Shown here: positions 3,573-24,552 of the stretch, in pieces
Numbering within the stretch: position 1 is the stretch's first letter
How the letters are laid out: every line of letters begins with the position of its first letter
DNA from: Pseudomonadota bacterium
GTDB taxonomy: Bacteria; Pseudomonadota; Gammaproteobacteria; Acidiferrobacterales; UBA6901
Assembly (NCBI GenBank): GCA_027364845.1
Contig: DAHXOO010000002.1
Span: 76,422 to 140,421, forward strand
Direction: 5' to 3'
Length of the DNA: 64,000 nt
Notes under the pieces: model-generated
Seen by the model: the letters and a program-made list of their open reading frames with translations, nothing else
Told to the model about the DNA's origin: nothing
Database searches by the model: none
Made by a program: the position numbers and the translations under genes

Positions 3573-5300
3573 CTAACGACACAGATCCTGGCGGCGATAC
3601 ATTTCCTCGATCTCCCTGGCAAAGCGCTCCTCGACCTTGCTCCGGCGCAGCTTGAGTGTCGGCGTAAGCAGATCATTCTCTACCGTCCAAGGTTCGGCGA
3701 TGCGCACGATATGACATATCCGCGCGTAACCCGGGAAAGCCCGCAACTGGATGTTGGCGCGCTGGCACAGGGCGCGCTCGTCATCGAGCCTGCTAACGAC
3801 CAGAAGACCAAGATGCGCGCGGCCTTCGCCCACCACCATCACCTGCTGGAAGACCGGATCGAGCATTATCGCCTGCTCAGCATCAGCCGGCGGGACTTTT
3901 TCTCCGTTGCTGAGCACGATGATCTCCTTGGCACGCCCGACAATGTAAATTCGCCCGCCCTCGATGCGTACCACATCACCGGTGTGCAACCAGCCTTCGG
4001 CGTCGATCATGGCGTCTGTCGCTACCGGGTTATTCCAGTAACCGAGCATCACTCCCGGGCCGCGCACCAACAGCTCGCCGTCGTCCAGAGTCCTGATCTC
4101 GACTCCGGTGAGCGGTCGCCCGACCGAGGCAGGATCGTTATCCCCGAGGCGGTTGCAGCTCACCACAGGTGAAAACTCGGTGAGTCCATATCCTTGCAAC
4201 AGGGGCAGCCCAAGCCCAAGAAAGGTGCGCGACAGCTGCGGTGCAAGCGCCGCGGCGCCGGACACGATCAGGCGCATGCGCCCGCCCAACCGCCGGCGCA
4301 GCTTGCGCGCAACAAGCGCATCGAGCAGAGGCCAAAGGAATCTGTCGCCCCACCGCGCCTGTCCGGCAAACCGCCTCCACCCGACATCGATCGCCTGTTC
4401 CAACAGGCGCCGGCGCCAGCACCCGAGCGGCAGGTTTTCGTACATGCGCGCATAGATGCGTTCGAATATGCGCGGCACGCACACCAGGATCGTTGGGCGT
4501 TGACTCAGCAGATCCTGCGAGAGCTCCGAGATGCTGCGCGCAAAAACGGTGCGGGCGCCGACGCACATGCACAGGTAATAACCCACGGTGCGCTCGAACA
4601 TGTGCGAAAGTGGCAGAAAAGACAGAAACAGATCATCGGCGTTCACGTCTGGCACCGCATCCAGACCGGCGCTGACGTTGCTCACGATATTGCGGTGGCT
4701 CAGCATCACACCCTTGGGGCGGCCGGTGGTGCCCGATGTGTACACCAGCGTCGCCAGATCCGCGGCACGTGCAGGACCGGCATCCAGGGCTTCACCTTGT
4801 GCCGGCAGCCATCCGGACACGGCCACTGCGATCGCGTCACCCACGGGCACGTCGTTGATGCAGATCACGCGCGCAAGCGCCGGAATCTGCCCGCGCAGCC
4901 CGCTCCAGAGCGACCCATCCTCGAGCAGGAGCAGCCGCACACCGGCGTCATTCATGCACCAGGCCATGTTGTCCGGCCTGTCGTTGTAGAACAACGGTAC
5001 CACGACCAGCCCGAGGCTGAGCGCCGCCTGATCAAAGAGAATCCATTCGATCCGGTTCCGCATACAAAGCGCCACACGATCCCCCGGCTTGAGACCCTCG
5101 TTGCGCAGCGCCGCGCGCCAGCATCCCGTCTCGCGTCCCGCTTCTGCCCAGTCGATGTCCTGCCATCGGCCGCGATGCACGTCCTGGGGGGCGCTGGGAT
5201 CTGCGTGAAACTGGCGGTAGGCCAGTTTGCTCGGCGTATTCTGGATACGGGCCAGGAACAACTGCGGCAGGGTTGTCTGTTCAGTAATCGGGACCCGCAT
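3573..5300 (-). CDS. Acyl-CoA synthetase / long-chain-fatty-acid--CoA ligase (FadD/FadK-like, AMP-forming)
   Basis: AMP-binding signature YTSGTTGRPKGVMLSHRN plus LLQGYGLTE and GWLHTGD. ATG at 5300 is preceded by GGAG; the track uses TTG at 5306. It starts 2 nt after the upstream gene's stop. Confidence 0.9.
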   Translation of the reverse strand: MRVPITEQTTLPQLFLARIQNTPSKLAYRQFHADPSAPQDVHRGRWQDIDWAEAGRETGCWRAALRNEGLKPGDRVALCMRNRIEWILFDQAALSLGLVVVPLFYNDRPDNMAWCMNDAGVRLLLLEDGSLWSGLRGQIPALARVICINDVPVGDAIAVAVSGWLPAQGEALDAGPARAADLATLVYTSGTTGRPKGVMLSHRNIVSNVSAGLDAVPDVNADDLFLSFLPLSHMFERTVGYYLCMCVGARTVFARSISELSQDLLSQRPTILVCVPRIFERIYARMYENLPLGCWRRRLLEQAIDVGWRRFAGQARWGDRFLWPLLDALVARKLRRRLGGRMRLIVSGAAALAPQLSRTFLGLGLPLLQGYGLTEFSPVVSCNRLGDNDPASVGRPLTGVEIRTLDDGELLVRGPGVMLGYWNNPVATDAMIDAEGWLHTGDVVRIEGGRIYIVGRAKEIIVLSNGEKVPPADAEQAIMLDPVFQQVMVVGEGRAHLGLLVVSRLDDERALCQRANIQLRAFPGYARICHIVRIAEPWTVENDLLTPTLKLRRSKVEERFAREIEEMYRRQDLCR

Positions 5301-5302
5301 GG

Positions 5303-7348
5303 TCAACTCCGCGGAACAGTATGATGTGTCAACAGATCCGACCTAGCCCATGCCTCATCGGGCTCGAAGCGCGGGCCATATTCCTGCGCCAACCGCCTGA
5401 GACTACTGGCAATGCCGACCTCCCCCAGGGCCTCGGCATAGCGCATGGGTCCGCCCAGATAGGGCGCAAACCCTGTCCCGAAGACCATTCCGACGTCAAC
5501 GGAATCAGGGTCATCGACCACGCCTTCACGAAGGCAGGCGGCCGCTTCGTTCAACATACGCAGGATCAGCCGCTCGATAACAGGTGTATCGGTATGCCCA
5601 CGGACCGCGCGGTGGCGAGGCCTGCCGGATCTGTCGAAGACATAGAAGCCGCGCCCCGACTTTTTTCCAAGATCACCGCGCTCGACGGCCTCACGCAGGC
5701 GATCCGGTACCGAAATGCCGAGTGGCCCGGAAAGCATTTCCGCCACTGACAGGCAGATATCCAGACCCACTGTGTCGGCCAGCAGCACCGGGCCCATGGG
5801 CATTCCAAAGCGCGTCGCCGCCTGATCGATCTGCTCGATCGGAATCCCTTCCTGCGCCAGGGTCATCGCCTCGATGAGATACGGCATCAGCACGCGATTA
5901 ACCAGGAATCCCGGGCTGCTCCGGACATCGAGAGGAAGGCGCTCGATTGCGACGGTAAAAGCCCGGGCACGCTCCAGAGCGGAGTCGCTGGTTTGCTTCC
6001 CGCGTACAATCTCGACGAGCTGCATTTGCGCCACCGGATTGAAGAAGTGCAGCCCGACGAGACGTGACGGATCTTTGAGCGCCTCACCCAGCACCTCCAG
6101 AGGGATGCTCGAGGTATTGGTTGCAAGCAGGGCACCCGGACGCACTATGCTTTCGATGGTCCGAAATAGCCCGCGTTTAACGTCCGCATTCTCGACTATG
6201 GCCTCGATGACAAGATCGGCCCGGCGCAGGCCGTTACCACCCGCGTCCGGCATCAATCGATCCATCGCATTTTGAATTGCTACCGGCTTTTTGAGTTTCT
6301 TTCTGTAGAATCCGTAGGCTTTCTTGACAGTGCGCGCGAGCGCCTCCGGCTGCTGGTCCTGCAGGCTCACACGGAAACCCTTGAACGCGGCCCAGATGGC
6401 TATATCCGCACCCATGGTACCGGCGCCGATTACGTGGAGGTGCGCGATGCCATGCGGGTTGCGGCGCCCGTTGCGCTTCAACTCCTCACCAAGCAGAAAG
6501 ATGCTTACCAGGTTGCGGCTGGTGCGCCCAACAAGCAGCTCTCCCAGCGATAGCGCTTCCTCCTCCTGCGAGGCAGCCCGACGCCACAGATCGAGCACCC
6601 GGTACGGGGCCGGATAATGGTCAGGGTTCGCCTTTTTATGCAGTTGCCGCTGCAGCAGGCGAAAAACCGGCTGGCGCAGGAATGGCCACGACGGTGCGCG
6701 CTTCCACCAGGTGGCGCGCCTGCGGTGCGGGTGGCGAGCAATGAACGCGTGCGCGGCATTCAACAGATGGCGCTCCGGCACGGTTTCGTCTACAAGCCCC
6801 AGCGCAAATGCCTGGCGCGCGCTCACCGTGCGACCGGTTAGCATGAGATCGAGCGCCGCTAGATCGCCGATCAGGGGCGGCAACCGCACGCTTCCGGCGA
6901 AACCTGGATGAATACCCAGCCGCACTTCGGGTAACCCCAGCCGCGTAGCCTCATCCTCGCGCGCAATTCGATAGGTGCAGGCCAGAGCCAGTTCCAGGCC
7001 CCCGCCCAGACAATTGCCGTGAATCAGCGCTACACTGGGAAACGGCAATCCTGCAAGCCGGTTGAATACGGTCTGGCCAGCGCGCGCGAGGGCAGCGGCT
7101 TGCGTCGAGTCGACGATCTTCTGGAACTCGTTAACATCCGCGCCCACGATGAAGCCGTTGACCTTCGCTGAACGAATGACCAGGCCCTGGAGTGGACGGC
7201 TTTCAATCTGCCCGAGGATGCGGTCGAATTCTTCCAACACCGTGGAAGACAACGCGTTTGCGCGCTGTCCGGCCACGTCGAGTGTCAGCACGATGGTTTC
7301 GTCGGCTTCCTCCATACGCCAGTTGACAACGTCGATGTCCACGCTCAT
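5303..7348 (-). CDS. Fatty-acid oxidation multifunctional enzyme alpha subunit (enoyl-CoA hydratase / 3-hydroxyacyl-CoA dehydrogenase, FadJ/FadB-like)
   Basis: N-terminal crotonase fold followed by the NAD-binding HVIGAGTMGADIAIWAA. Start MSVDIDVV at 7348 makes an ATGA overlap with the thiolase stop; the track start at 7405 is probably an over-extension. Confidence 0.9.
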   Translation of the reverse strand: MSVDIDVVNWRMEEADETIVLTLDVAGQRANALSSTVLEEFDRILGQIESRPLQGLVIRSAKVNGFIVGADVNEFQKIVDSTQAAALARAGQTVFNRLAGLPFPSVALIHGNCLGGGLELALACTYRIAREDEATRLGLPEVRLGIHPGFAGSVRLPPLIGDLAALDLMLTGRTVSARQAFALGLVDETVPERHLLNAAHAFIARHPHRRRATWWKRAPSWPFLRQPVFRLLQRQLHKKANPDHYPAPYRVLDLWRRAASQEEEALSLGELLVGRTSRNLVSIFLLGEELKRNGRRNPHGIAHLHVIGAGTMGADIAIWAAFKGFRVSLQDQQPEALARTVKKAYGFYRKKLKKPVAIQNAMDRLMPDAGGNGLRRADLVIEAIVENADVKRGLFRTIESIVRPGALLATNTSSIPLEVLGEALKDPSRLVGLHFFNPVAQMQLVEIVRGKQTSDSALERARAFTVAIERLPLDVRSSPGFLVNRVLMPYLIEAMTLAQEGIPIEQIDQAATRFGMPMGPVLLADTVGLDICLSVAEMLSGPLGISVPDRLREAVERGDLGKKSGRGFYVFDRSGRPRHRAVRGHTDTPVIERLILRMLNEAAACLREGVVDDPDSVDVGMVFGTGFAPYLGGPMRYAEALGEVGIASSLRRLAQEYGPRFEPDEAWARSDLLTHHTVPRS

Positions 7349-8643
7349 GCCGGTTCTCCTTCCACACGCACCAGCATCGCGCCACCCTGACCGCCGCCGA
7401 TGCAAAGGGTTGCGACACCAAGCCCTCCTCCGTGGCGGCGCAGCGAGCGCAGCAGATGTAAGACGATGCGTGCGCCGCTTGCCCCGACGGGATGGCCGAT
7501 CGCGACCGCACCGCCTTCGGTGTTCAGACGCGCCGGCTCCATGGGGCCGAGCGGGACGTCGAGATCGAGTTCGTCGCGGGCATATTCAGCGCTCGCCCAT
7601 GCTGCCTGGCAGGCAAGCACCTGTGCGGCAAATGCCTCGTTGAGTTCCATCTGCCGGATATCCTCCATGCTAAGCTCGAACCGGGCTAGCAATTTCGCCA
7701 CAGCATGCACCGGCCCGAGGCCCATCTGACTGGGATCGACACCAGCCCAATCTTCGCCGAGCAGCTCGCCCAGCACCGGCAGACTGTAGCGCTCCACGGC
7801 GGTTTCGCTCGCCAGTATTAGCATCGCCGCTCCGTCGGTCACCTGCGAGCTGTTGCCCGAGGTCACCACACCGTACTTCCGGTCGAACACTGGCCTGAGT
7901 TTGGCGAGCTGGTTCATGTCGGTATCCCTGCGCAAACCGCTGTCCTCCTGGTGGATGCGGCCGCGGGTATCGTATAGCGGCTCGATCTCATCGCGCATCT
8001 GCCCGGCGTCATAGGCTGCCGACAGGCGCTGATGACTGGCGAGCGCATAGGTATCCTGTTCAGCGCGCGTAATACCGAAGCGATGCGCAACAATCTCCGC
8101 GGTCTGGCCCATATTCAGCTTTACCAGCGGGTCGGTCAGTCCCAACAGCAACGTGTATACCGGCACCAGATGCGACAACCGGAAGGCGGCTATCGCGCGA
8201 AGGCGCGCAATCGGATTGCGGGCACGCAGTACTCCGGCAAGCCAGCCGGTCATGGCGGTATTCCACTGGATCGGCGCGCGGCTCATCGCTTCGGTGCCAC
8301 CAGCGAGAATTAGATGCGCGTGACCCTGGGCAATCCGCTCGCGCGCGCTTGCCAACGCCTGCAGCCCGGAAGCACAGTTGCGCTGGACCGTAAAGGCTGG
8401 GACGGCTTTACCGCAGCCGAGGCGCAGCCCGATGATGCGTGCAACATTCGCCTCGTCCGGCGCCGGAATCACACAGCCCACGATAACTTCGTCTATTTGC
8501 TCCGGAGCAAATGGCGCACGCGCCAGCAGCGGGCGGGCGGCGGCTACCGCCAGGTCAGCAGCACTGAACTCGTTTGGCTGGCCGCGCGCCTTGAGAAACG
8601 GCGTGCGTGCACCATCGACGACGTAAACCTTTGCATCTGACAT
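7345..8643 (-). CDS. 3-ketoacyl-CoA thiolase (acetyl-CoA C-acyltransferase, FadI-like with lid insertion)
   Basis: Active-site RNCASGLQAL and C-terminal CIGGGQGGAMLV. Strong SD (AGGAGG) upstream of ATG at 8643. Thiolase placed before the multifunctional enzyme matches fadIJ order. Confidence 0.9.
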   Translation of the reverse strand: MSDAKVYVVDGARTPFLKARGQPNEFSAADLAVAAARPLLARAPFAPEQIDEVIVGCVIPAPDEANVARIIGLRLGCGKAVPAFTVQRNCASGLQALASARERIAQGHAHLILAGGTEAMSRAPIQWNTAMTGWLAGVLRARNPIARLRAIAAFRLSHLVPVYTLLLGLTDPLVKLNMGQTAEIVAHRFGITRAEQDTYALASHQRLSAAYDAGQMRDEIEPLYDTRGRIHQEDSGLRRDTDMNQLAKLRPVFDRKYGVVTSGNSSQVTDGAAMLILASETAVERYSLPVLGELLGEDWAGVDPSQMGLGPVHAVAKLLARFELSMEDIRQMELNEAFAAQVLACQAAWASAEYARDELDLDVPLGPMEPARLNTEGGAVAIGHPVGASGARIVLHLLRSLRRHGGGLGVATLCIGGGQGGAMLVRVEGEPA

Positions 8644-8798: not shown

Positions 8799-11700
8799 CT
8801 AGACGCTCTGTACAGCAGCATCGGCCGTCAAGGATCGCACCAGTGCCGGCACCCACTCCAAGAGGTCGCCGACACAGCAGATTACATGCGGTCCCGGATT
8901 CTGACGCGACCAACTGAAGATCGGTGCATCCGGATCGCGATTGATGGCAACCACTACGGCACCCCGATCGATCCAACCCATATGCTGCGGTGCCCCGGAA
9001 ACGCCCAGTGCCAACAGCAGCGTCGGCGCCACCGGGACGCCAGTCTGGCCGATCTGGCGGTCGGTCGGCAGAAGCTTGAGCTCCTGCGTTACCTTGCGTG
9101 TTGCCCCGAGCTCCACGGCCGTACCGCTAAGACGTTCGAGCGCCACACATAGCGGCGGAACCAGCTCTTTGTATGTCGACTGGTTTGCAATGCCGAGTCC
9201 CACGTCCACAATGATCTTCGCCGCCGCCAGGCCACCAATCGCAGCGGCGGAATGCGCCCGAGCGCGCACCAGGGCCGAACTTCGCAGGCGCGCAACCGGC
9301 AGCATCGTGACAAGGATCGGCGTGGATGCCGGGGCGGCCAGTTCCACTTTTGGACCGGCACGGTTTATGATCAGCAGCGCGGCGCGCGGCAGCGGGTAAT
9401 CCGCCTCGTAACCGTCATGGGAACAGGTCACCGCATCGGGCGTTACCCTGATGACTTCGTCAAACAGCGGTATTCCAAGGCGTGCTGCCAGCACCGCCCC
9501 GAGTGCACGGTGTTCCGCGCCCAACACGATGCGTTGGGGCACACCGATATGTGCCGCCAGCACGTCAGCCAAAGCCCCCCACAGCACTTCGCCCTGTACC
9601 GGCAGCTGCCATAGCCCGGCAAATCCCGGCTGGGCCAGCACAAACGAACCCGGCGATGGCGTCTGACCGACCCGATGCCAAGTGAGTACGCCAAATCCCG
9701 CACCGAGTACAACGAGTGCCCGCAGTGCCGGTGCCCGGCTGGCGCCGGTCAGCATGTCCGCCGAAGTCAGCCACAGATTAGGGCCGGCGAGTGGTACCTG
9801 TGCGGGCCGCATCGCCGCCGGCTTATCGGCGATAGCAGCCGTACCGAACCGGCCTTTGATCCAGGTGGCCAGCTCGTCGGCGTCGTCGAAGCGCCGCGGC
9901 AAATCGCCGGCCGGCAGTGGGGACAGTGGTCGTACTGCTGCTGCCAACAGCTGCGCGCTGATTTCGCTGCCTTTTAGTTCTGTGCGCAGCACCGCCAGCC
10001 AATCGCGCACACCGTAGTGCCCGGTGCGACCGTTGGGCTTCAAATCCCAGACAAATGCGGTACGACGTTGGTCGGCGATGAACCACCGCTTCCAGGATGC
10101 ATCCTCCATCCACAGGCCGCGCGCGACAGCACCTACGGCAGTCGCGCCCTCAACGAGATCGATGCCGAGCAGCCGCCCCATGTTGGCAACAAAGCCGTGA
10201 TCGCGCACGCTGGATGCGGCACATCCGAAGGCCCAGCGCCGCACCTGCGGCCAGGCGTGCATAATAGCCTGCGCGGCACCGGCCATGTCGGCGGCACCGG
10301 CCGGCTGAGCGAGGTGCAGAACCTCTGCGCCTGCCGCCTGCAGGCAACGCAACGGGTCGTCGATACCGTGCGGCGCGATTGCGGCGACTTTCACCTGCAG
10401 CGCCGGAAACCGGTCCGACCAGCACAGCAGGCGATCCAAGACCGCAAGATCCGCCGGATTCCACCCGACCCAATCGAGTCCACGCGCACCGGATTCGAAG
10501 CGGCTGCGCAGCACGACAGCCCACTCTCCACCCAGCCCGCCCACTGCCACCGGGCCGTCATCCGCTGGCGCCGGCGCGGCCAGTGCCACGCGCGCTAGTG
10601 TCAGGGCAGCCTCACTGGGATCCTCCTCACCGCGCTCGGCCCGCTCGAAATCCGCGCACACCATTCGGGCCACATCCTGCACATGCTGCGTGATGCTGAC
10701 TTCGCTCGCACGCAGGCGCGCGATATTCTCGCGGTCCACAGGGTCACCGTGAAAATCAAGCAGGCGGATGCGCTCGTGCAGCGCCGACCAGCTGTAAAGC
10801 TCGGCCGCCCAGTCGACCACGGGGAACCAGCGCGCCTGAAAGTCCGGATTCTGCCAAACCGCGGAACCGAGTCGCGCGACACGCACCGCAACGAAGTCGC
10901 GGAATGTCTGCAGCGCGGCATCGAGCTGCGCATTGTCCACAACCGGAGTGGCCTGCTCGCGCAGTAGGTTCGGCAGATCCTTGAGCACGAGAAAGCGCTG
11001 GACCTCGTTTGTCCCTTCGTAGATGTTCAGGATGCGTATATCGCGCCGCCATTTTTCCAGCATCACCTCGCGTGCGGCTGCCATCGGTCCATAGAGCTTC
11101 TCAAGCCAGCCGAGAATACGGTGCGCACCTTCGGAAGCGAGGTACTTTGAAAACGCCGCCTCGATGCGAAAGTCTCCACGCTGCAGGTTGGACCGGTCCA
11201 TCAGGCCCATCAGACGCGCGGCCAACGTTTGCAGCCGGTCACACTCTGCCTGGGCCGCAGCGTGCAGTATCGGATCCTTCTGCCACACCGGCAAAAACTC
11301 GTGCAGCACGCGCTCAGCAAGAGTGGCACAGCTCATGACGAGACCACCACGCCCCACGCTCAGCGTCTCGAGTGCGTTCACCTGCCCATGGCCCGCGAAG
11401 CCGATCACCTGATCGGCGCCCACGCGCACCCGGTCCAGAGTCAATTCGTTGGTCGGCGAGGCGCGTTGGCCGAGCTTGTTCTCGTTCGGCCCGATGCGCA
11501 GGCCTTCGGAACGGCGCTCGAGCATGAAACCGGTTTCGCCGAGCGCGGTCTGCGCGTACAAGCAGTAACGATCCGCGACCGATCCGTTGGTGATCCACAT
11601 CTTGTTTCCAGACAGTTCCCAGTAGCGATAGAAGGTCTTGCCATTCGTGACGACAACGGTGCCTATGTCGTCATAGGGATAGGCGTGCTCGCCGACGCAA

Positions 11701-14700
11701 ATCCGGCGGCAGCCGCTGTTGCGTGCCATGTCCCAGTCACTGTCATCGAGGCTGGCTAAACTGCCGTCCGGAAGACGAAAAAACGCCTGGCGCGATTCGA
11801 ACACCAGTCGCGCCGCATCCAGCAGTACACGCGGCTTCTCGGTGCCGGCAGCAATGAAGCGGTACAGCCCTTGTGCGTCAACCTGCGCTTCCACCTCACG
11901 CAGTACAGCGCGCGTCTGAATGCCTCCAGTGTCAGAACCCGCCGCCGGCTCCGTCAGCGCAAAAGCGCTGATCTGTCCACAGGCGAGAAACTGCAGGAAG
12001 CGCCCGTGTGCATGCTCGCGGGCGTCGAGTTCCTGCTGTTCATCCGTAAGCCGCGCACGCACTGCCGGCAACCCGTCCCGGCACTGCCTCAGGCCCGCGC
12101 CGAATGCATTCAGGTCGCGCGCCTTGGCGGCTTCCACCGTCTGCTGCACAAGTGCGAGAAAATCGCGTATCAGGTACTTGAGCGTCGAGCCCGGGAAGAG
12201 GAACATGCTCTGTATCTGCGCGCCCAAGCGCTCCAGTGCCCGACGCAACGGCTTGGGCTCCGGACGCTCGACCATGGTGATGAGTTGGTCCAGGCTATCC
12301 ACCAATGCCCGCCATCCCGGCATGTCGGCCAAGAACGCGCCGATCTCCCGGCGCAACCGCGGCAGATCCTTTTCGCGGCCCAGCAGCACCGGCATAGTGC
12401 CGATGCTGGTGCTGGCCATGACCAGCAGTCCAGTGGCCGTATCCTTTTCGCCCATGCACAGGTTAGTGAGCACCGAGTACTGGGCCTTGCTCCAGCCCTT
12501 TCCCCCGAGTTCCTTGGGCACGATGGTCGCAAAGGCATTGAAGTCGCGCAGCAGCTGGACGTCGCGTTGCGGCATTCCGTGCAGGGAATCTATGTAGCGG
12601 CCATAAGGTTCATCCCTGCGCGGGCTGCGAAAGCCGCGGCGCAACAACCGCAAAACTTCGGCGCGCGTGCGGCGCAGCAGTGGATCGCGCCGATAGTGCT
12701 CGGAGACCAGCAACTCATCGGGCGCGAGCAAGCGGCCGTTCAGAAAGCTACCGCTCTGGTAGATAAATTTCTCGTGCGCCTGCCACGCGAGCGAGTAGCG
12801 CGGTCGCAGCGGCTTGTGCCGCTGCGGATCGGCGTTCGATGGGTGCAATGCACGGATGCGTCGGCGCCCGTTCGCGAACTGCAACAGGCTTTCGGCTACA
12901 ACGTAGTCGATCCCCGGCAGCGTCTGCGCCAGCAATCGTGCTGCAAAATCCGGGTCTTCATTTCCTAGCTCGCGTGATCCCGGCCACTGGCTGAACAGGA
13001 TCGCGTCGCGGTAGCGCGGCGCGAGAATATCTTCCTCCGAATATGCCATGCCCCCGAAGATCTGGCCGGCGAGCCAAGGCACAGCATCCATCCACGGACC
13101 CATGCACTCGCGCACAAACGACAATACCTGGTCCGGCTCACGCTGACACCAGCGACGCGCCAGACCAAGCAGCGTGTACGCATACTCGATGCCCGCCAGC
13201 ATCTGCTTGACTACTCCGAACTTGGCGATGCTATCGCGCCCCTCGATGTCCTGCAGTTCGCCGCGGAACTGAACCCGGGTAGCGGCATATTCGAGCGCGC
13301 GACGGCGTAGTACCGCTGCCTGGCCGAGGGCCAGTGCAACACTCAGCTCGGCCATCGCAGCCGTGACCACAAAGTTGCGAAGATCCGCCTCGACACGCCT
13401 GCGTACCGGCTGGGCAGCATCGGCACCAGCACCGTGCGCAATGATCTCGCCAGCGGATTTCACGCCACCGTGCGGGTCGATAAGCCGCTCGGCGGCAGCC
13501 GACAACCAGTTTGAATTGCCATCCTCCTCGCGCCACAAGGGTGCAGCCAGGGCATCCTCGATCGTGCGCCCGGCGTATTCTTCGGCCAGGTAGTGGCCGG
13601 CGGCGATCCACGCCAGTGCACTCGACCAAGACGCCAACCATTCCACCGCAGTGCCACGGTGCGTGCGTGCAGCGACTATCCAGTCGCAAAGGGCACGTCG
13701 GTCTGATTGTTCCCAGGGCGCGCGCACCAGCGATTTGAGCCTTTCCGGCAAGAAATGAACCTTGAGCTTCTCCCACATGAATTCGTACCGCCGCAGCCGA
13801 TGCGCATGGGGATCACACACATTGCGCTCGTCGATTGGCAACGCCTGCGCCTGCTCCAGCAGGGCATGCACTTCGGTTTCCATCGAGCCGTAAGCATTGC
13901 GCTGCAGCCACGAGCTGACGCGCGCGCGGGTTGATTGCGTCAATTCGCCAGGGGAAATCTCTTTGAGCAGCTTCGTCCAGGCGCGCGGCCACTCCCAGGC
14001 CACCATCGCCGGCCGCGCGCGCAGAGACCGATACAGGCTTTGCCACGAACCGCGCTCAACATCGCTCAAGTGCAGTGGCTCTATCGGGGCAAGTTCCAAC
14101 GCGGAAGTCACGGAAGAGTCCGGACCGCTTCGGGCATTTCCCGGTATCCGATAGACAAACCGATGGCCACTGTTCCGATTCCAGTCCACCCCAGGCACTG
14201 TCACGCGGCAGGATTCGCACTTGATACAGTTTTCGTGCTGGCTCGCGACCCCACCCAGCTGGCTGACCAGGCTGTAGACTTCCGCTGGACAGACGTTGCG
14301 CAGCTGTTGCGCCGAGGCGCCGAGGTGCAGGGGTACAGTCACGTGTCGTGGATCAGGTTGGTGCCGCACAAGCGGGGCGATCCAGGTTGTAGGCGAAGCA
14401 GCGCTGCGGTGCGCCCTGACCCAGTCAAGCTGACTACGCGTGCTGTCCTCATAGCGATGGTAAGGCCGCAGGAGCAATGCGCGCAGCGGTACACGGCCGG
14501 TCTTGTATGCCGCGAGATCACTGAGCAGCGATGCGCCGCCGGATAACGCGCTCAGGCCCAGACCGGCGATGCGAGGAAGCACCAACGGCAAGCGCGCCAT
14601 GCTACGCCAGACCATCGCCACGCGATCGGCGAATGCCGGCAGACGCCGGCCGTAGAAATGGCCGATGGCCTTGGCAGCCAGCGCCAACACGGGATCGTCC

Positions 14701-16103
14701 TGGACCACAATTTCCGCCGGCGCATTGCCGGCATGTGCCACCAGGAAACGCACCTGCAGTGGCACCGCCGTCCGTGCTGCATGCAGACGCGGGCCAAATC
14801 CGCGGGCCAGGCGCAAAGCCTGTGCCGCATCGCGGCGCAGATGGGCGAGTTGAACGCCAAGAGCACGCCGCCGCTGGGCGCAGCGAGCGCCGGGCGGCAG
14901 GTAGTCGGCATCGATCATCTGACCAAGCATGGCGGGCAGGTGGTCAAACAGAGCCGGACCACCGTGGATTGCGCTGGGCCAACGCCGTATAAGCGCGGCA
15001 TTGCGAAAATCGTCGGTATTGCGCAATGCCTCGGCATATTCATGCTCCAGATTTTCACGCGTATAGTCAGAACCATTCCGGCGTATGCGCAATACTGCAT
15101 CGGCAAAGGTCAACGCACTGGTGATGGCAGGCGCAATGAAATTCGGGTAGGGCACCTCTTGCCCGATACCAAGACTGCCGCCGCCAACAGCCAGCCCATC
15201 GCGCACCCACTCCGGCGTTTCGTCGACCCCACCGGAACGAATTACTTTGGCACCATAGGCAATCTGCTGCGCGCCCTCGAGGTAGGATGCAATCACCGGC
15301 AAGTTGCGCACGCGTTCGAAAAGATGCGGGTGATCGGCGATGCTTGCCTGTGCCAGGCGCTCAAGTGGAAGCACCAGGCCAAGCGAGAGCGAGTCGTGGT
15401 TCGTGTACAAGAAGGCGGTCATGTTGAGCCGCGTCGGGCGACCGGCGAGCTGACCGTTGCGTAGCAGCCACTCCTGCGCCACTCCCTCGTCCGATTGCAG
15501 CTGAAATCGCTTTTCGATTTCCGGCGGCGGCAGGCGGAACAGCGCCTTGATGCCTTGGGCATAATGCGGGAGCTTTTTGCGCTCAATGCCTTCGCGCGTC
15601 AGCAAGCCGGCGGCGTCACCTTCGGCGAGAAACACCACGGGAGCCTCCACTGGCCCGCGGTCGGTATTGACACCAACCACACGGTCGCCGTGATAGCGCA
15701 GACCCGTTACCGTGGTGGCAGTGATCAGCGTAGCGCCGAAATCGATGGCGCGACTCGCGAGCCAGCGATCGAGCTTGGGGCGCAGAACCGTCCATGCTTC
15801 GCCGTAATCGTTGCCGGCATGGGCCCGAGCCTCGAAACCGGCAGCATTGATGCCGTCATGCAGAAACAGGCTGCGTGCGACGATACGCCGCTCCTTCGGC
15901 GCCTGCCGCCACAGTTCCTGCCCCAGGACATCTTCGCGCAGCAGGCCCTCAGCATGATAGACGCAACCGGACCAGTTCTCAGCACCCGCATACTCTGCGC
16001 CCTCGAGCACCATCACTGATACTCCGGCGCGGACCAGCCGCAGCGCCGCCGCAATCCCAGCGGGTCCAGCGCCTACGATAAGGACTTCGGGCGAGGAGGG
16101 CAT
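8799..16103 (-). CDS. Giant 2434-aa fusion protein: FixC-like ETF-quinone oxidoreductase + FixX-like ferredoxin + degenerate ACAD-like unit + acyl-CoA dehydrogenase + ETF-beta-like + ETF-alpha-like
   Basis: One uninterrupted 7305-nt ORF with family motifs in one frame along its whole length. They are VLIVGAGPAG (aa 7-16), CPAEVY...ENCIKCESC (aa 605-632) and QIFGGMAYSEED...FSQWPGS (aa 1014-1043). They continue with ALTEPAAGSDTGG (aa 1382-1394), GNKMWITNG, IYEGTNEVQR (aa 1694-1703), LALGVSGAPQHMGW, VAINRDPDAPIF and CCVGDLLEWVPAL (aa 2365-2421). Confidence 0.9.
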   Translation of the reverse strand: MPSSPEVLIVGAGPAGIAAALRLVRAGVSVMVLEGAEYAGAENWSGCVYHAEGLLREDVLGQELWRQAPKERRIVARSLFLHDGINAAGFEARAHAGNDYGEAWTVLRPKLDRWLASRAIDFGATLITATTVTGLRYHGDRVVGVNTDRGPVEAPVVFLAEGDAAGLLTREGIERKKLPHYAQGIKALFRLPPPEIEKRFQLQSDEGVAQEWLLRNGQLAGRPTRLNMTAFLYTNHDSLSLGLVLPLERLAQASIADHPHLFERVRNLPVIASYLEGAQQIAYGAKVIRSGGVDETPEWVRDGLAVGGGSLGIGQEVPYPNFIAPAITSALTFADAVLRIRRNGSDYTRENLEHEYAEALRNTDDFRNAALIRRWPSAIHGGPALFDHLPAMLGQMIDADYLPPGARCAQRRRALGVQLAHLRRDAAQALRLARGFGPRLHAARTAVPLQVRFLVAHAGNAPAEIVVQDDPVLALAAKAIGHFYGRRLPAFADRVAMVWRSMARLPLVLPRIAGLGLSALSGGASLLSDLAAYKTGRVPLRALLLRPYHRYEDSTRSQLDWVRAHRSAASPTTWIAPLVRHQPDPRHVTVPLHLGASAQQLRNVCPAEVYSLVSQLGGVASQHENCIKCESCRVTVPGVDWNRNSGHRFVYRIPGNARSGPDSSVTSALELAPIEPLHLSDVERGSWQSLYRSLRARPAMVAWEWPRAWTKLLKEISPGELTQSTRARVSSWLQRNAYGSMETEVHALLEQAQALPIDERNVCDPHAHRLRRYEFMWEKLKVHFLPERLKSLVRAPWEQSDRRALCDWIVAARTHRGTAVEWLASWSSALAWIAAGHYLAEEYAGRTIEDALAAPLWREEDGNSNWLSAAAERLIDPHGGVKSAGEIIAHGAGADAAQPVRRRVEADLRNFVVTAAMAELSVALALGQAAVLRRRALEYAATRVQFRGELQDIEGRDSIAKFGVVKQMLAGIEYAYTLLGLARRWCQREPDQVLSFVRECMGPWMDAVPWLAGQIFGGMAYSEEDILAPRYRDAILFSQWPGSRELGNEDPDFAARLLAQTLPGIDYVVAESLLQFANGRRRIRALHPSNADPQRHKPLRPRYSLAWQAHEKFIYQSGSFLNGRLLAPDELLVSEHYRRDPLLRRTRAEVLRLLRRGFRSPRRDEPYGRYIDSLHGMPQRDVQLLRDFNAFATIVPKELGGKGWSKAQYSVLTNLCMGEKDTATGLLVMASTSIGTMPVLLGREKDLPRLRREIGAFLADMPGWRALVDSLDQLITMVERPEPKPLRRALERLGAQIQSMFLFPGSTLKYLIRDFLALVQQTVEAAKARDLNAFGAGLRQCRDGLPAVRARLTDEQQELDAREHAHGRFLQFLACGQISAFALTEPAAGSDTGGIQTRAVLREVEAQVDAQGLYRFIAAGTEKPRVLLDAARLVFESRQAFFRLPDGSLASLDDSDWDMARNSGCRRICVGEHAYPYDDIGTVVVTNGKTFYRYWELSGNKMWITNGSVADRYCLYAQTALGETGFMLERRSEGLRIGPNENKLGQRASPTNELTLDRVRVGADQVIGFAGHGQVNALETLSVGRGGLVMSCATLAERVLHEFLPVWQKDPILHAAAQAECDRLQTLAARLMGLMDRSNLQRGDFRIEAAFSKYLASEGAHRILGWLEKLYGPMAAAREVMLEKWRRDIRILNIYEGTNEVQRFLVLKDLPNLLREQATPVVDNAQLDAALQTFRDFVAVRVARLGSAVWQNPDFQARWFPVVDWAAELYSWSALHERIRLLDFHGDPVDRENIARLRASEVSITQHVQDVARMVCADFERAERGEEDPSEAALTLARVALAAPAPADDGPVAVGGLGGEWAVVLRSRFESGARGLDWVGWNPADLAVLDRLLCWSDRFPALQVKVAAIAPHGIDDPLRCLQAAGAEVLHLAQPAGAADMAGAAQAIMHAWPQVRRWAFGCAASSVRDHGFVANMGRLLGIDLVEGATAVGAVARGLWMEDASWKRWFIADQRRTAFVWDLKPNGRTGHYGVRDWLAVLRTELKGSEISAQLLAAAVRPLSPLPAGDLPRRFDDADELATWIKGRFGTAAIADKPAAMRPAQVPLAGPNLWLTSADMLTGASRAPALRALVVLGAGFGVLTWHRVGQTPSPGSFVLAQPGFAGLWQLPVQGEVLWGALADVLAAHIGVPQRIVLGAEHRALGAVLAARLGIPLFDEVIRVTPDAVTCSHDGYEADYPLPRAALLIINRAGPKVELAAPASTPILVTMLPVARLRSSALVRARAHSAAAIGGLAAAKIIVDVGLGIANQSTYKELVPPLCVALERLSGTAVELGATRKVTQELKLLPTDRQIGQTGVPVAPTLLLALGVSGAPQHMGWIDRGAVVVAINRDPDAPIFSWSRQNPGPHVICCVGDLLEWVPALVRSLTADAAVQSV
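8829..9731 (-). other. Domain of giant ORF: ETF alpha (FixB/YdiR)-like module including the FAD-binding C-terminal domain (aa ~2125-2425)
   Basis: IIVDVGLG...ELGATRKV...RQIGQTGVPVAPTLLLALGVSGAPQHMGW...VVVAINRDPDAPIF...VGDLLEWVPAL matches the conserved ETF-alpha C-terminal FAD-binding region. Confidence 0.85.
9924..10532 (-). other. Domain of giant ORF: ETF beta (FixA/YdiQ)-like module (aa ~1858-2060)
   Basis: WAVVLRS...WNPADLAVLDRLLCW...VKVAAIAPHGIDDPLRCLQAAGAEVLHL follows the ETF-beta pattern (beta strand, N-x-x-D-x-x-A-[LV]-[ED], then G-x-x-x-x-x-x-L-R-x-x-x-A-x-G-A-[DE]). The assignment is weaker than for the alpha module. Confidence 0.55.
10974..12611 (-). other. Domain of giant ORF: complete acyl-CoA dehydrogenase (N, beta and C domains, with insertions; aa ~1165-1710)
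   Basis: ACAD signature 1 ALTEPAAGSDTGG, GNKMWITNGSVADRY, LGQRASPTNELTLDRVRV and the C-terminal IYEGTNEVQR, which retains the catalytic Glu. Confidence 0.85.
12984..13391 (-). other. Domain of giant ORF: degenerate acyl-CoA dehydrogenase C-terminal helical domain lacking the catalytic Glu (aa ~905-1040)
   Basis: LEYAATRVQFRGEL and QIFGGMAYSEEDILAPRYRDAILFSQWPGS align to the ACAD C-terminal pattern (Y-A-x-x-R-x-x-F-G ... Q-x-x-G-G-x-G-[YF] ... I-Y-E-G-T). The YEGT position reads WPGS here. Confidence 0.6.
14139..14351 (-). other. Domain of giant ORF: FixX/YdiT-like ferredoxin (aa ~585-655)
   Basis: CPAEVY followed by the C-x2-C-x2-C cluster ENCIKCESC, as in FixX-type 4Fe-4S ferredoxin-like proteins. 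Confidence 0.7.
14910..16088 (-). other. Domain of giant ORF: FixC/YdiS-like FAD-dependent ETF:quinone oxidoreductase (aa ~6-398)
   Basis: N-terminal Rossmann GxGxxG (VGAGPAGIAAA). Length and sequence run match FixC-type proteins (DRWLASRA..GATL, FLAEGDAAGLL, LAVGGGSLG). Confidence 0.8.
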
Positions 16104-16419: not shown

Positions 16420-16446
16420 GAAAAAGCGGTGCCTGATTGCTCAGGC
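16420..16446 (-). terminator. Candidate rho-independent terminator after the tlpA-like gene
   Basis: The minus strand reads GCCTGA-GCAA-TCAGGC (6-bp stem), then ACCGCTTTTTCC (T5). Confidence 0.4.
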
Positions 16447-16586
16447 AATTGACCCCGCCAAGGAAGATTTGTTGCACAGACAGGGCGAGACCCGGGTCTG
16501 CGGCGACGGCGAGCGCGTCCCAAGTCTCTCAGACTCATCGGCACGGAGCACGGGCCAGTTTGGCCACGCCCGCATACCGCGACAAA

Positions 16587-17146: not shown

Positions 17147-17767
17147 TTACTTCTCCATCGCTGAACGAGTGGCAGAGCATAACACGTTGCGCACCCATGC
17201 CTGTTCTGGTACGCCGTTTTCGGTCCAGCGGACCTGCAGATCGAAGCGCTGGCCGGGACCCAGGTTGGCGGTAACCATTCCCTGCAGCCAGTCGCCGCCA
17301 CCAAGCCGCTCCACGGTCGGAAGCATGGCGTAGCGGAAAGCGATCTGCGCCGAGGGTGCGACCCGCTCCTTACCCCATTGTCGGTGCCAGTCTGCTTCGA
17401 GGCGAAGCTGGTTCTTGTGGCCGTCGGCAACCACCCGCCAATCACCGAGATTGATCCGGATCGTCCTGGCTGCGGACAGGTTCTTCACAACGACCGCCAT
17501 TACGCAGGCATCAGCGATCTGCCGTGAAACGCTGGGTGTGAAGCCGCGCCCCTGGAAAAACGCCTCGGTCAGATCGATAGGGCGCTGGACAAGCTCGACG
17601 GCCAGTCCGTCCTGCCGGGCTACTGCCCAGTGCGGCAATGCGGTTTGGGACAGAGGACTGGAGGCGTTCGCCGTTGCCGCATAGCCCGCAACAAAAGCGA
17701 CTACCAAGAGCGTCAACACCATCCTGCAGCGGCACGAACCGCGTATGTCGCGAAAGATGCCGACCAT
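17147..17767 (-). CDS. Hypothetical secreted protein (~206 aa), unknown family
   Basis: The C-terminal 206 codons of track ORF 17147-18253 start at ATG 17767 and carry a signal-like MVLTLLVVAFVAGYAATANA. The upstream 160 codons are Arg/Pro-rich junk. I recognise no family motif. Confidence 0.6.
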   Translation of the reverse strand: MVGIFRDIRGSCRCRMVLTLLVVAFVAGYAATANASSPLSQTALPHWAVARQDGLAVELVQRPIDLTEAFFQGRGFTPSVSRQIADACVMAVVVKNLSAARTIRINLGDWRVVADGHKNQLRLEADWHRQWGKERVAPSAQIAFRYAMLPTVERLGGGDWLQGMVTANLGPGQRFDLQVRWTENGVPEQAWVRNVLCSATRSAMEK

Positions 17768-18204
17768 CGAATCTGCCCCCGTCAATCTTAGCCCGCGCTG
17801 GTAGCGGGAGTTTGCGGCATCACTGCCGACATAAAGAAACTCGCGCTGGGCGCAGCGCTGGCTGCCATTGGGTGGCGCGAACCTTCCACTTCGATTGGGT
17901 CTTGCCCGCCAAGGATGGGGCCCGCCGTTCTGCCAATACTCGATATGTGCCCGGTTGCAGGCCGCCACTGTCCGGGACTCGGCCACGGGCAAGGATCGGG
18001 ACGACTTTGGACGCAATAGCGGGTGGCATGTATTGATCTGGTTCTTCGCCCAAGAATCAGCGCTGCGCTGGGTCCTGGTTCGATTCAAAATCGTGGATCC
18101 CCGGTGACGACAGCGGCGTTTGCAAAAAAACGCACGTTGTCCGAACAAGCGCCGGTTAGGTCGACGGCAACTCATAGTGATTCCGTCACCACGAAGAGCG
18201 CTGG

Positions 18205-18879
18205 TCATTTTCTGTAACTCGTAGTCTCGACTGGCAGCCCCGCCTCGCGCCACTCCGGAAACCCATCCTGCAGCCGCCGCGCCTGAAACCCCGCCTGGCG
18301 CAGGCGCTCCACCGCCTCATAGGCAAGCACACAGTGCGGTCCGCGACAATACGCGACGATTTCCTGGTCGTGCGGCAAGTCGTTGAGTCGTTGCTCGAGA
18401 TCTTTCACCGACACGTTGATAGCCCCCGGAACATGGCCCGACGCGTACTCCTCTTGCGGACGAACGTCCATCACCGTCACCAGTCCGCGGCGCGCGCGGT
18501 CAAGCAGCTCGGCGCGCGGGATCGGCTCCAGCTCATCCTTGACGGTCAGGTAGGTGCGAACCAGGCGCTCGACTTCGGCGAGGTGCGTCTCGGCAAGCTT
18601 ACGCATGCTCGCGAGCAGTCGAACAACTTCATCGTCCACGATGCTGTAGGAGACGTACTGCCCCTCCTTGCGTGCTTTGACGAGGCCGCTCTGGCGCATA
18701 ACCTGAAGGTGCTGTGAGGTATTGGCCACGGAGATGCCCGCGAGCTTCGCCAGTACCTCGACGGTGCGCTCCCCTTGGGCGAGATACTCGAGCAGTTCTA
18801 GTCGGTAGCCGTGGCAAACGGCCCTGCCAATGCGAGCAATCTCGCGGTAGAGCTGCTGCTTGAGTGAGGGACTTGACAT
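18205..18879 (-). CDS. ArsR/SmtB-family transcriptional regulator fused to a C-terminal rhodanese domain
   Basis: Winged-helix block RLELLEYLAQGERTVEVLAKLAGISVANTSQHLQVMRQSGLV. Rhodanese block VMDVRPQEEYASGHVPGAINV...AYCRGPHCVLA contains the active-site Cys. The first ATG at 18879 has AGGA 7 nt upstream; the track uses TTG at 18906. Confidence 0.9.
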   Translation of the reverse strand: MSSPSLKQQLYREIARIGRAVCHGYRLELLEYLAQGERTVEVLAKLAGISVANTSQHLQVMRQSGLVKARKEGQYVSYSIVDDEVVRLLASMRKLAETHLAEVERLVRTYLTVKDELEPIPRAELLDRARRGLVTVMDVRPQEEYASGHVPGAINVSVKDLEQRLNDLPHDQEIVAYCRGPHCVLAYEAVERLRQAGFQARRLQDGFPEWREAGLPVETTSYRK

Positions 18880-18896
18880 GATGATCCTGCAGAAAG

Positions 18897-18924
18897 TAGT
18901 ATTCAATTGAATGATTGAATACTA
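18897..18924. promoter_or_regulatory. Candidate operator: perfect 10-bp inverted repeat TAGTATTCAA-N8-TTGAATACTA with a nested 12-bp palindrome ATTCAATTGAAT
   Basis: Read directly: 18897-18906 is the reverse complement of 18915-18924, and 18901-18912 is self-complementary. It lies in the AT-rich divergent region between the ArsR-rhodanese gene (18879) and the plus-strand operon (18984). Confidence 0.6.
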
Positions 18925-18983
18925 GCAGATCGGAAGCAAATCTTCCAAATCCGGATGTTTTGTTCGTCGCCCACGGGGGTATT

Positions 18984-19835
18984 ATGCTTGAAATCGTTCT
19001 GCAGCACGCCATGGTCCTGCGGTTAGGTATGTTTTTCGGGATCCTGGTCGCCATGATACTGTTGGAGCTTGCCGCGCCACGCCGCCCGCTTTCTGTGTCC
19101 CGGCTTCGCCGCTGGGCAAGCAACCTGGGTATCGTGTTTCTCAACAGCATCCTGCTGCGCCTGCTTTTACCGCTGGCCGCCACCGGATTTGCGCTGCTAG
19201 CGGCGGACCGGGGATGGGGGCTTTTCAACCTGTTCCTCGTTCCTTCCCGGGTTCTGGTCATCGCCTCGATCATCCTCCTTGATTTGGCGATCTACCTGCA
19301 GCACGTACTGTTCCATGCGGTCCCGGCATTGTGGCGGCTGCACCGCATGCACCATGCCGACCTCGATGTCGACGTCACTACCGGAGCCCGCTTTCATCCG
19401 ATCGAGATCCTGCTTTCGATGTTGATCAAATTTGCGGTCATTGCACTCCTCGGCGCCCCGGCGGCAGCCGTGATGATTTTTGAAGTGCTGCTCAACGCCA
19501 CCGCCATGTTCAATCACGGCAATGTGCGGCTGCCGCTTGGCCTTGACCGTGTGCTGCGACTGTTCGTCGTCACGCCGGACATGCACCGGGTGCATCACTC
19601 CATCGAGGACCACGAGACCAACAGCAATTTCGGCTTCAACCTGCCCTGGTGGGACCACCTGTTCGGCACCTACAAGGCCCAGCCCAACGCCGGGCACGAG
19701 GCTATGACCCTCGGCATCCGCGACTACCGCGCGCCGAAGCTCACCACCGACCTGCCCGGCATGCTGATCCTGCCGTTCCTCGGACGCGTTACCGGCTACG
19801 CCATCAACCGCCGCGAATGGAGCCGCTCTTCGTGA
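18984..19835 (+). CDS. Fatty acid hydroxylase / sterol desaturase superfamily membrane protein
   Basis: Histidine boxes HAVPALWRLHRMHH and PDMHRVHHS, with several TM segments. ATG at 18984 is preferred over the track TTG at 18915, which sits inside the palindrome. Confidence 0.8.
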   Translation: MLEIVLQHAMVLRLGMFFGILVAMILLELAAPRRPLSVSRLRRWASNLGIVFLNSILLRLLLPLAATGFALLAADRGWGLFNLFLVPSRVLVIASIILLDLAIYLQHVLFHAVPALWRLHRMHHADLDVDVTTGARFHPIEILLSMLIKFAVIALLGAPAAAVMIFEVLLNATAMFNHGNVRLPLGLDRVLRLFVVTPDMHRVHHSIEDHETNSNFGFNLPWWDHLFGTYKAQPNAGHEAMTLGIRDYRAPKLTTDLPGMLILPFLGRVTGYAINRREWSRSS

Positions 19836-24514: not shown

Positions 24515-24552
24515 ATATAGAGTGCAATTTCGCGACCGGTCTTTATCGATCG

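Follow-up and report, generated by a model that had tools for sequence, protein, structure and literature searches.

A fused FixC-FixX-acyl-CoA dehydrogenase-electron-transfer flavoprotein polypeptide encoded next to beta-oxidation genes, a putative single-chain acyl-CoA:quinone oxidoreductase

The stretch of DNA analysed here (the window) comprises 64,000 nucleotides from a Pseudomonadota bacterium of the order Acidiferrobacterales (GenBank assembly GCA_027364845.1, contig DAHXOO010000002.1, positions 76,422 to 140,421). A mechanical list of its open reading frames (ORFs) contains a single ORF of 2434 amino acids (aa) on the minus strand at 8799..16103, which starts with ATG and whose end coordinate counts the stop codon. 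The encoded protein joins a FixC/FixX-type quinone reductase, related to electron-transfer flavoprotein:quinone oxidoreductase (ETF-QO), to acyl-CoA dehydrogenase (ACAD) domains and both subunits of an electron-transfer flavoprotein (ETF), and the gene heads a same-strand operon of thiolase, FadJ-like and acyl-CoA synthetase genes. The features of the ORF, all on the minus strand and given in the order of the polypeptide, are the following.

8799..16103, minus strand: whole fused ORF, FixC-FixX-pseudoACAD-ACAD-ETFbeta-ETFalpha (stop-free 2434 aa plus stop codon; more than 100 collinear homologues)
14784..16103, minus strand: FixC/ETF-QO-type FAD and quinone-reductase module, aa 1-440 (NF007542, 7koe_C, AlphaFold2 (AF2) model)
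14337..14783, minus strand: family-specific insert that separates the FixC from the FixX part, aa 441-589 (AF2 helices, low sequence conservation)
14154..14336, minus strand: FixX/ETF-QO-type iron-sulfur segment, aa 590-650 (four invariant Cys; 7koe_D)
13392..14153, minus strand: region without a detectable sequence family, aa 651-904 (nine AF2 helices, then short strands; no Pfam match)
12954..13391, minus strand: relic ACAD C-terminal domain, aa 905-1050 (Pfam Acyl-CoA_dh_1, 1buc alignment, profile test)
10968..12668, minus strand: catalytically complete ACAD, nearest to VLCAD (very-long-chain ACAD) and ACAD9, aa 1146-1712 (VLCAD match)
10527..10967, minus strand: helical C-terminal ACAD extension, aa 1713-1859 (profile alignment to 2z1q_A and 3owa_A; AF2/Foldseek)
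9819..10526, minus strand: ETF-beta-like domain III and recognition-loop region, aa 1860-2095 (segment profile against PDB)
8802..9818, minus strand: ETF-alpha, domain I and FAD-binding domain II, aa 2096-2434 (1t9g_R, Pfam ETF_alpha)

The original prediction, made from the letters and the ORF list without database searches, had proposed one stop-free ORF carrying the modules FixC, FixX, ACAD C-terminal domain, ACAD, ETF-beta and ETF-alpha in this order. The ORF list and the translation, which is free of internal stops, bear out the first point. All of the modules were found, in the same conserved order, and every family motif that had been quoted was located in the translation. The FixC, ACAD and ETF-alpha assignments were upheld by Pfam, NCBIfam and PDB profile searches. 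The family profile used for the PDB searches was built from 38 homologues, residue invariance was judged across homologues of 28-81% identity, and AF2 models were made of two overlapping pieces (aa 1-1130 and aa 880-2079) from a 32-sequence alignment.

An ORF of about 7.3 kb joining five usually separate proteins is unusual, and on this prior alone it might be suspected that adjacent genes had been merged through a sequencing or assembly frameshift or a lost stop codon. The protein search, however, returned at least 120 relatives, almost all of 2266-2740 aa and 31-100% identical to the window protein, with the same module order. The lengths of the modules are near constant over these homologues, and the linker regions also keep their length. 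The identical protein is present on three contigs, and its 80%-identical cluster is represented on many contigs from NCBI, ENA and JGI. Within the limits of sequence data, the collinear homologues and the recurrence on separate contigs rule out a frameshift or assembly artefact, and we regard its probability as negligible. The G+C content is about 0.63 and even over the region of the ORF. The identical NCBI protein (P0001, 2404 aa) was called from M31, which cuts off the Rossmann GxGxxG motif; the ATG at 16103 brings it back. The 30 residues left out of P0001, which contain this FAD-binding motif, correspond to window positions 16014-16103 (minus strand). Since the P0001 call starts at M31, database entries of the window's clade may be N-terminally shortened.

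The fusion family is rare yet spread over several phyla. Where names were given in the protein search, relatives belonged to Acidiferrobacterales, Acidiferrobacter, Gammaproteobacteria, Leptospirillia, Verrucomicrobiae and Betaproteobacteria, and full-length copies were also found in a Nitrospirota metagenome-assembled genome (MAG) and an unclassified MAG. When the family-specific middle (aa 395-1130) was searched against 1.84 billion cluster representatives, only 80 proteins matched at E <= 1e-3, about 45 of them giant proteins. A scan of genome contigs with ACAD-wide peptide patterns returned mostly ordinary ACADs, with full-length relatives at just two loci (L001 and L002). The archive names of family proteins are generic ('FAD-binding protein' or 'acyl-CoA dehydrogenase family protein'). 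In four proteins of 2006-2330 aa (P0125, P0129, P0141 and P0168) the relic ACAD domain lies about 430 residues closer to the N-terminus than usual; these may be variants without the FixC module, or shortened gene calls.

The predicted FixC-type Rossmann N-terminus was located at aa 7-16 (VLIVGAGPAG), and FixC models matched the N-terminal part of the protein at E 1e-45 to 1e-46. These models, NF007542 (E 5.7e-46, aa 7-393) and the YdiS-type NF007450 (E 3.1e-45), span aa 7-399, and with the family profile the Thermotoga FixC chain 7koe_C was matched over residues 1-398 (E 1.5e-54). G11, G13 and G16 of the GxGxxG motif are invariant across homologues, as is Y233-T234-N235 in the quinone-domain region. 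The AF2 model of aa 1-1130 (mean predicted local distance difference test score (pLDDT) 79, predicted template modelling score (pTM) 0.65) resembled 7koe_C most closely, with a template modelling score (TM) of 0.86 and a root-mean-square deviation of 3.3; pig ETF-QO (2gmh) was next best.

The FixX-type motif CPAEVY...CIKCESC lies at aa 605-632. Its cysteines C605 (in CPAEVY) and C626, C629 and C632 (in CIKCESC) are invariant in 120/120 sequences, in agreement with the predicted cluster. They are the sole conserved cysteines, which suggests one [4Fe-4S] cluster, as in ETF-QO. The best PDB match of the segment was FixX (7koe_D, E 3.9e-4), and Pfam Fer4_ETF_QO matched weakly at aa 598-637 (E 0.002-0.09).

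The insert between the FixC and FixX parts was confidently modelled as helices (pLDDT 86-92), including one 44-residue helix at aa 491-534. The counterpart helix of distant homologues, at about aa 530-570 there, is strongly hydrophobic (Kyte-Doolittle 2.0-2.7), and the helix at aa 491-534 is a candidate monotopic membrane anchor. A single-pass transmembrane helix at this position (aa ~491-534) was rejected, because FixC and FixX would end up on opposite sides of the membrane.

The ACAD at aa 1146-1712 was matched to VLCAD by the family profile in three stretches (E 2.7e-58), and the profile also aligned to residues 172-528 of 2z1q_A and 177-548 of 3owa_A. Pfam recognized an N-terminal domain at aa 1166-1240 (weakly), a middle domain split into aa 1380-1404 and aa 1494-1559, and a C-terminal domain at aa 1572-1708. 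The motifs ALTEPAAGSDTGG, GNKMWITNG and IYEGTNEVQR lie at about aa 1382-1394, about aa 1499-1507 and aa 1694-1703, respectively. T1384 and S1390 (TEPxAGSD), W1503 and T1505 (WITNG) and the catalytic E1696 are invariant in the family, and correspond to T136, S142, W166, T168 and E376 in MCAD (the medium-chain ACAD). The domain had been predicted to be a complete ACAD, and the presence of the catalytic Glu, TEPxxGSD and WITNG, together with support for a three-domain fold, agrees with this.

In the PDB, the AF2 model of aa 880-2079 (mean pLDDT 85.5, pTM 0.80) was closest to VLCAD, to ACAD9 and to two long ACADs of bacteria, 3owa and 2z1q (TM about 0.70, some 750 columns aligned); Foldseek comparison with short ACADs gave TM 0.75-0.82. 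Because the fold match runs over about 750 columns, the ACAD has a VLCAD-like C-terminal helical extension at aa 1713-1859. Two family-specific inserts, conserved in length and modelled with high confidence, were observed within window positions 11625-12368 (minus strand). The first, about 120 aa of long helices (aa ~1245-1365), separates the N-terminal from the middle domain, and the second, about 90 aa (aa ~1405-1493), is placed within the beta domain.

Alignment to VLCAD showed that the active ACAD lacks its own trans FAD-binding motifs RxxFG and QxxGGxG. It reads PVWQKDP at the VLCAD NRTQFGE site and KLYGPMAA at the QIMGGMGF site, and the family profile has a family-wide 10-residue deletion at the lost motifs. 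These motifs are kept in a second, relic ACAD domain that precedes the active one. An ACAD-like C-terminal helical domain had been predicted in this part of the chain. Pfam Acyl-CoA_dh_1 (positions 19-139) matched aa 922-1045 with only E 1.3e-3, and butyryl-CoA dehydrogenase (1buc) matched with E 0.028. When a profile of aa 905-1050 was run against 76 ordinary ACADs (real sequences from genomic loci) and 380 shuffled controls, 68/76 ACADs scored above the best control (ACAD median 28 bits, shuffled maximum 7.7), and all alignments landed on the C-terminal domain of the ACADs. Because 68 of the 76 beat every shuffle and were aligned at this domain, we consider aa 905-1050 a genuine ACAD C-terminal domain. 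Comparison of aa 640-1130 with aa 1130-1860 of the family by hhalign gave no significant internal match, and with a broader profile of aa 640-1130 human MCAD (an approximate sequence) scored no better than shuffles.

The invariant residues of the relic domain include R943-x-Q945-F946 and G1013-Q1014-x-x-G1017-G1018-x-x-x-S-E, which read RVQF-G and GQIFGG-AYSE...YRDA in the alignment to 1buc. The catalytic YEGT is replaced by WPGS. In MCAD numbering the kept residues are R281, T283, F284, Q349, G352 and G353, which in the MCAD structure (Kim, Wang & Paschke 1993) reach over the dimer interface to bind the partner's FAD. The motif loss is complementary: the relic domain keeps the trans FAD-binding residues that the active ACAD has lost. 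A comparable division is described for the mycobacterial ChsE4-ChsE5, in which isoalloxazine and catalytic Glu both belong to the alpha subunit, and the FAD's ADP-ribose is contacted by the beta subunit (PMC11153573). This complementarity, following the pattern of the mycobacterial alpha2beta2 ACADs, suggests that the relic and active ACAD pair up within the chain as a pseudo-heterodimer that has a single active site. For aa 651-1085, AF2 predicted a helical aa 681-844, short strands at aa 853-903 and a helical aa 915-1085. On this predicted secondary structure, aa 651-904 may represent decayed remnants of an N-terminal and a middle domain that once belonged to a second ACAD-like subunit.

At the C-terminal end, the profile of aa 1715-2175 matched nine ETF-beta chains in the PDB (E 2e-19 to 1.5e-10; 4kpu_B 2.1e-19 and 6fah_B 4.3e-16 were best, and human 1efv_B gave 5.7e-13). 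On the basis of these matches, the predicted ETF-beta-like segment was placed at about aa 1860-2095, where AF2 gave a confident alpha/beta fold. The ETF-alpha assignment was also borne out. The family profile matched residues 12-332 of the human ETF-alpha chain 1t9g_R (E 4.4e-34), Pfam ETF_alpha (PF00766) matched aa 2292-2375 (E 1.5e-15), and the motifs LALGVSGAPQHMGW, VAINRDPDAPIF and VGDLLEWVPAL lie in aa 2363-2425. Invariant residues of the FAD-binding domain II include R2336, Q2350-I-G-Q-x-G, G2367-x-S-G-A-P-Q-H and N2388-x-D2390.

The matches to ETF-beta raise the possibility of electron bifurcation. In a FixABCX-like reaction, the ETF base would hold a second FAD that is reduced by NADH, and the electrons would be split; one would reach quinone (or the ACAD, reducing enoyl-CoA) by way of the ETF-alpha FAD, the iron-sulfur cluster and FixC, and the other would pass to ferredoxin or flavodoxin. 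Consistent with this, the best ETF-beta PDB matches (4kpu_B, 6fah_B and 5ol2_B) are bifurcating EtfBs, and the quinone-reductase half is nearer to FixC/FixX (7koe_C and 7koe_D are the best matches) than to mitochondrial ETF-QO. The margin of bifurcating over canonical EtfB is, however, small (73 vs 52 bits), and the diagnostic residues point the other way. According to PMC8958531, DGDTAQ is the EtfB nucleotide zipper of 216 bifurcating ETFs and DDDxNQ that of 449 canonical ones, and the EtfA arginine is kept in 447/449 of the latter. In the window protein the zipper conforms to neither and reads SVRDHG, and the loop is deleted in many family members. The arginine of EtfA xRPxYAGN, a contact of the bifurcating flavin or nucleotide, has not been preserved: the window protein has T2226, and the position varies among K, R, L, T and S in other family members. 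ETF-alpha domain I has no invariant residue and ETF-beta just a nearly invariant G1960, unlike domain II with its more than 20. Furthermore, no ferredoxin, flavodoxin or nif genes were found near the giant gene. Because both the bifurcating and the AMP-binding canonical signatures fail, the ETF module most likely keeps the electron-transfer FAD alone; its base would bind no second FAD, and perhaps no AMP. Bifurcation is therefore highly improbable.

We next describe the genes around the fusion. The features are as follows.

7345..8643, minus strand: thiolase, FadI-like, downstream gene 1 (Pfam Thiolase_N and Thiolase_C; NF006030 650 bits vs cut-off 593)
5303..7405, minus strand: FadJ/FadB-like enoyl-CoA hydratase and 3-hydroxyacyl-CoA dehydrogenase, downstream gene 2 (Pfam ECH_1, 3HCDH_N and 3HCDH)
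3573..5306, minus strand: fatty-acid--CoA ligase, downstream gene 3 (Pfam AMP-binding E 6e-75)
16430..16447, minus strand: terminator-like hairpin separating the giant gene from the AhpC/TSA gene upstream of it (consensus match only)

The FadJ model matched gene 2 with E 3.2e-162, below the model cut-off, and the best NCBIfam matches of gene 3 were fatty-acid and long-chain-fatty-acid CoA ligases. The terminator-like hairpin points to a separate transcription unit beginning with the giant gene. The identical four-gene order is present in L083 (44% identity) and L086 (41% identity). In the unclassified MAG locus L002 (6492-18136, plus strand) the order is thiolase, FadB and giant gene with overlapping ends, the giant protein having 2716 aa and 34% identity. 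The linkage to beta-oxidation genes thus recurs down to 34% identity, in two gene orders. Verrucomicrobial copies adjoin divergent genes for glycerophosphodiesterase and GlpD-like glycerol-3-phosphate dehydrogenase (L084 15895-18044, L087 14901-17050), which hints at a role in phospholipid turnover.

The gene context and the invariance of all four redox-cofactor sites favour a path from acyl-CoA to quinone. The best-supported reading of the ORF is a self-contained, non-bifurcating acyl-CoA:quinone oxidoreductase in a single chain, catalysing the first step of beta-oxidation with its own path to the membrane quinone pool, and we give this reading a probability of roughly 70%. Among the functions offered by the original prediction, the acyl-CoA-to-quinone wire is accordingly the one favoured by gene context and cofactor sites, and the FixABCX-like bifurcating enzyme is disfavoured by its missing signatures. 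The domains, their order, the conserved cofactor motifs and the gene context are observed, and we infer the direction of the reaction, the electron path, the attachment to the membrane, the pseudo-dimer and the chain length of the substrate.

In the proposed mechanism, the VLCAD-like ACAD (aa 1146-1712) would oxidize acyl-CoA to enoyl-CoA on its FAD with E1696 as the base, and the relic domain (aa 905-1050) would stand in for the second ACAD subunit by holding the ADP-ribose part of this FAD. The FAD of ETF-alpha domain II (aa ~2290-2430), which would sit on a base formed by ETF-beta and ETF-alpha domain I, would accept the electrons singly from the ACAD FAD. Domain II would then swing to the FixX-type [4Fe-4S] cluster (C605, C626, C629 and C632), from which electrons would pass to the FixC-type FAD (aa 1-440) and on to quinone at the membrane. 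With no second FAD in the ETF base, the electrons would not be bifurcated. More tentatively, and with somewhat less than an even chance, the protein may be an evolutionarily re-engineered, tethered minimal respiratory entry module, in which the ACAD is a pseudo-heterodimer, the role of the nucleotide in the now nucleotide-free ETF base has been taken over by linkage, the flavin shuttles within the chain, and a family-specific hydrophobic helix holds the assembly at the membrane.

The same modules could in principle work backwards and reduce enoyl-CoA, with quinol or another donor, in reverse beta-oxidation or in synthesis related to fatty acids or polyhydroxyalkanoates; such a reversal has been proposed for E. 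coli YdiO-YdiQRST. The components equal those of YdiO/YdiQRST plus FadI/FadJ/FadK, with YdiS-type NF007450 among the FixC matches, a FadI-like thiolase and a FadJ-like hydratase/dehydrogenase, and many host lineages are chemolithoautotrophs with no obvious need for fatty-acid catabolism. The fatty-acid-CoA ligase of the operon, however, activates free acids for degradation, and no linked reductive or biosynthetic partner genes were found in the window, L083 or L086. Reduction of enoyl-CoA by ubiquinol would also be strongly uphill, with no bifurcating site to pay for it; the potentials are about -10 mV for enoyl-CoA and about +100 mV for ubiquinol. We consider reversal quite unlikely.

Alternatively, the mechanism may be as proposed and the substrate different, namely a bulky, branched, hydroxylated or lipid-derived acyl-CoA for which the inserts and an asymmetric pseudo-dimer would enlarge the pocket. 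The two family-specific ACAD inserts fit this idea, a gene of the fatty-acid hydroxylase family lies about 3 kb upstream, and asymmetric ACADs with enlarged cavities have precedent (PMC11153573). The nearest ACADs are nonetheless VLCAD and ACAD9, the operon partners are of the generic FadI, FadJ and FadD types, and no linked steroid or aromatic catabolic genes were found, which makes such a substrate unlikely.

Several observations weigh against the acyl-CoA:quinone oxidoreductase reading or parts of it. Every family member comes from MAGs or metagenomes, and several distant homologues stand alone without beta-oxidation neighbours (in a 3.08-Mb genome, a Leptospirillia MAG and a Nitrospirota MAG). 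The quinone-binding domain ETFQO_UQ-bd (PF21162) matched weakly (E 0.002, 19 bits, cut-off 27.7). The family assignments of the iron-sulfur segment are individually weak (E 4e-4 to 0.09), and AF2 modelled the segment poorly (pLDDT 36-67), as is expected of a prediction made without the cluster. Within the window's clade, the putative anchor helix shows just moderate hydrophobicity. For the putative pseudo-dimer, the argument is motif complementarity, and a profile of aa 675-905 found no sequence similarity among the 76 ordinary ACADs. Finally, some of the carrier lineages may use menaquinone, in which case acyl-CoA oxidation would be near or above equilibrium.

By content, the closest known system is the proposed anaerobic beta-oxidation set of E. 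coli, YdiO and YdiQ/YdiR/YdiS/YdiT with FadI, FadJ and FadK. Both systems comprise ACAD-, ETF-beta-, ETF-alpha-, FixC- and FixX-like parts together with a thiolase, a hydratase/dehydrogenase and an acyl-CoA synthetase. The redox part of the E. coli set consists of five polypeptides, whereas the window protein is one chain, to which the relic ACAD domain, the 150-aa FixC-FixX insert and the degenerate ETF nucleotide site are added.

By mechanism, the closest system is the relay of VLCAD, ETF and ETF-QO, with the same proposed order of ACAD FAD, ETF FAD, [4Fe-4S], FAD and quinone; ETF-QO likewise has a single [4Fe-4S] cluster ligated by C...CxxCxxC. The ACAD to ETF to ETF-QO relay is textbook knowledge, and depends on short-lived complexes that are hard to trap and on a large swing made by the flavin domain of ETF. 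In the mitochondrial and proteobacterial relay the three partners are diffusible, the ACAD is a homodimer or tetramer, and the ETF contains AMP. In the window protein, by contrast, all parts are tethered, the trans FAD-binding motifs of the ACAD are lost, and the DDDxNQ zipper is absent.

FixABCX/EtfABCX (Thermotoga maritima 7KOE, Azotobacter) provides in FixCX the closest structure for the quinone-reducing half, and has the ETF docked to FixCX. It bifurcates electrons of NADH with a second FAD and has no ACAD, whereas the window protein lacks the bifurcating signature and its FixX-like part has the four Cys of one cluster only. The Bcd-EtfAB and CarCDE complexes (5OL2, 6FAH) have an ACAD stably joined to ETF, and their chains match the ACAD and ETF parts of the window protein well. 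Unlike it, they are soluble bifurcating NADH-/ferredoxin-dependent enoyl-CoA reductases of separate subunits, with no quinone reductase. The active/inactive split of the mycobacterial alpha2beta2 ACADs (ChsE4-ChsE5, ChsE1-ChsE2 and IpdE1-IpdE2) appears to match the motif pattern of the window protein. Their subunits are encoded by separate full-length genes, whereas here they would be fused, with the inactive partner recognizable by sequence in its C-terminal domain only. A fused EtfB-EtfA has been characterized in Sulfolobus acidocaldarius (SaETF), which binds two FAD, is reduced by NADH and is bifurcating (PMC12042025). It shares the order ETF-beta then ETF-alpha in one polypeptide with the window protein, but is an ETF alone, of about 600 aa, with no fused ACAD or quinone reductase.

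No description of the full fusion was found in a full-text literature search, most subscription journals being outside its coverage, and no NCBIfam model reaches its cut-off on the fused protein. Within this coverage, the earlier claim that the full architecture is uncharacterized stands. The parts and the pathway are known; new are the full fusion, undescribed in the literature covered, and two non-trivial adaptations, in the ACAD and in the ETF base. The conserved fusion is strong 'Rosetta-stone' evidence for FixC/FixX-type proteins in bacterial acyl-CoA oxidation, and bears on the unsettled role of E. coli YdiO-YdiQRST. It is also a natural experiment in what tethering makes dispensable (ACAD dimer symmetry, ETF nucleotide), and a target for single-particle cryo-electron microscopy of a complete electron path. 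If the tethered-module reading is true, one particle could capture the entire acyl-CoA-to-quinone path along with the swing of the ETF domain. The protein would further serve as a compact component for the engineering of beta-oxidation or of its reverse, and would fill in the lipid catabolism of Acidiferrobacterales, Nitrospirota/Leptospirillia and Verrucomicrobia, which are mostly known from MAGs.

The remaining sequence of the window is ordinary chromosome that encodes PolA, UvrD and signalling proteins. Upstream of the giant gene, a 368-aa ORF without Pfam or NCBIfam match (17147-18253, minus strand) lies between the AhpC/TSA and ArsR-rhodanese genes. It is followed by a cluster of sulfur- and lipid-related genes at 18205-20845, consisting of an ArsR-HTH fused to rhodanese (18205-18906, minus strand), the fatty-acid hydroxylase family protein (18915-19835, plus strand) and a VTT-domain protein fused to rhodanese (19649-20845, plus strand). 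Further along, a 1168-aa PAS/GAF/GGDEF/EAL signalling protein unrelated to the fusion is encoded at 51266-54772 (minus strand). Three genes in a row at 21765-25515 (plus strand) encode a multihaem cytochrome c (C554/C7-like), a pyridine-nucleotide-disulfide oxidoreductase and a radical-SAM protein with DUF3641.

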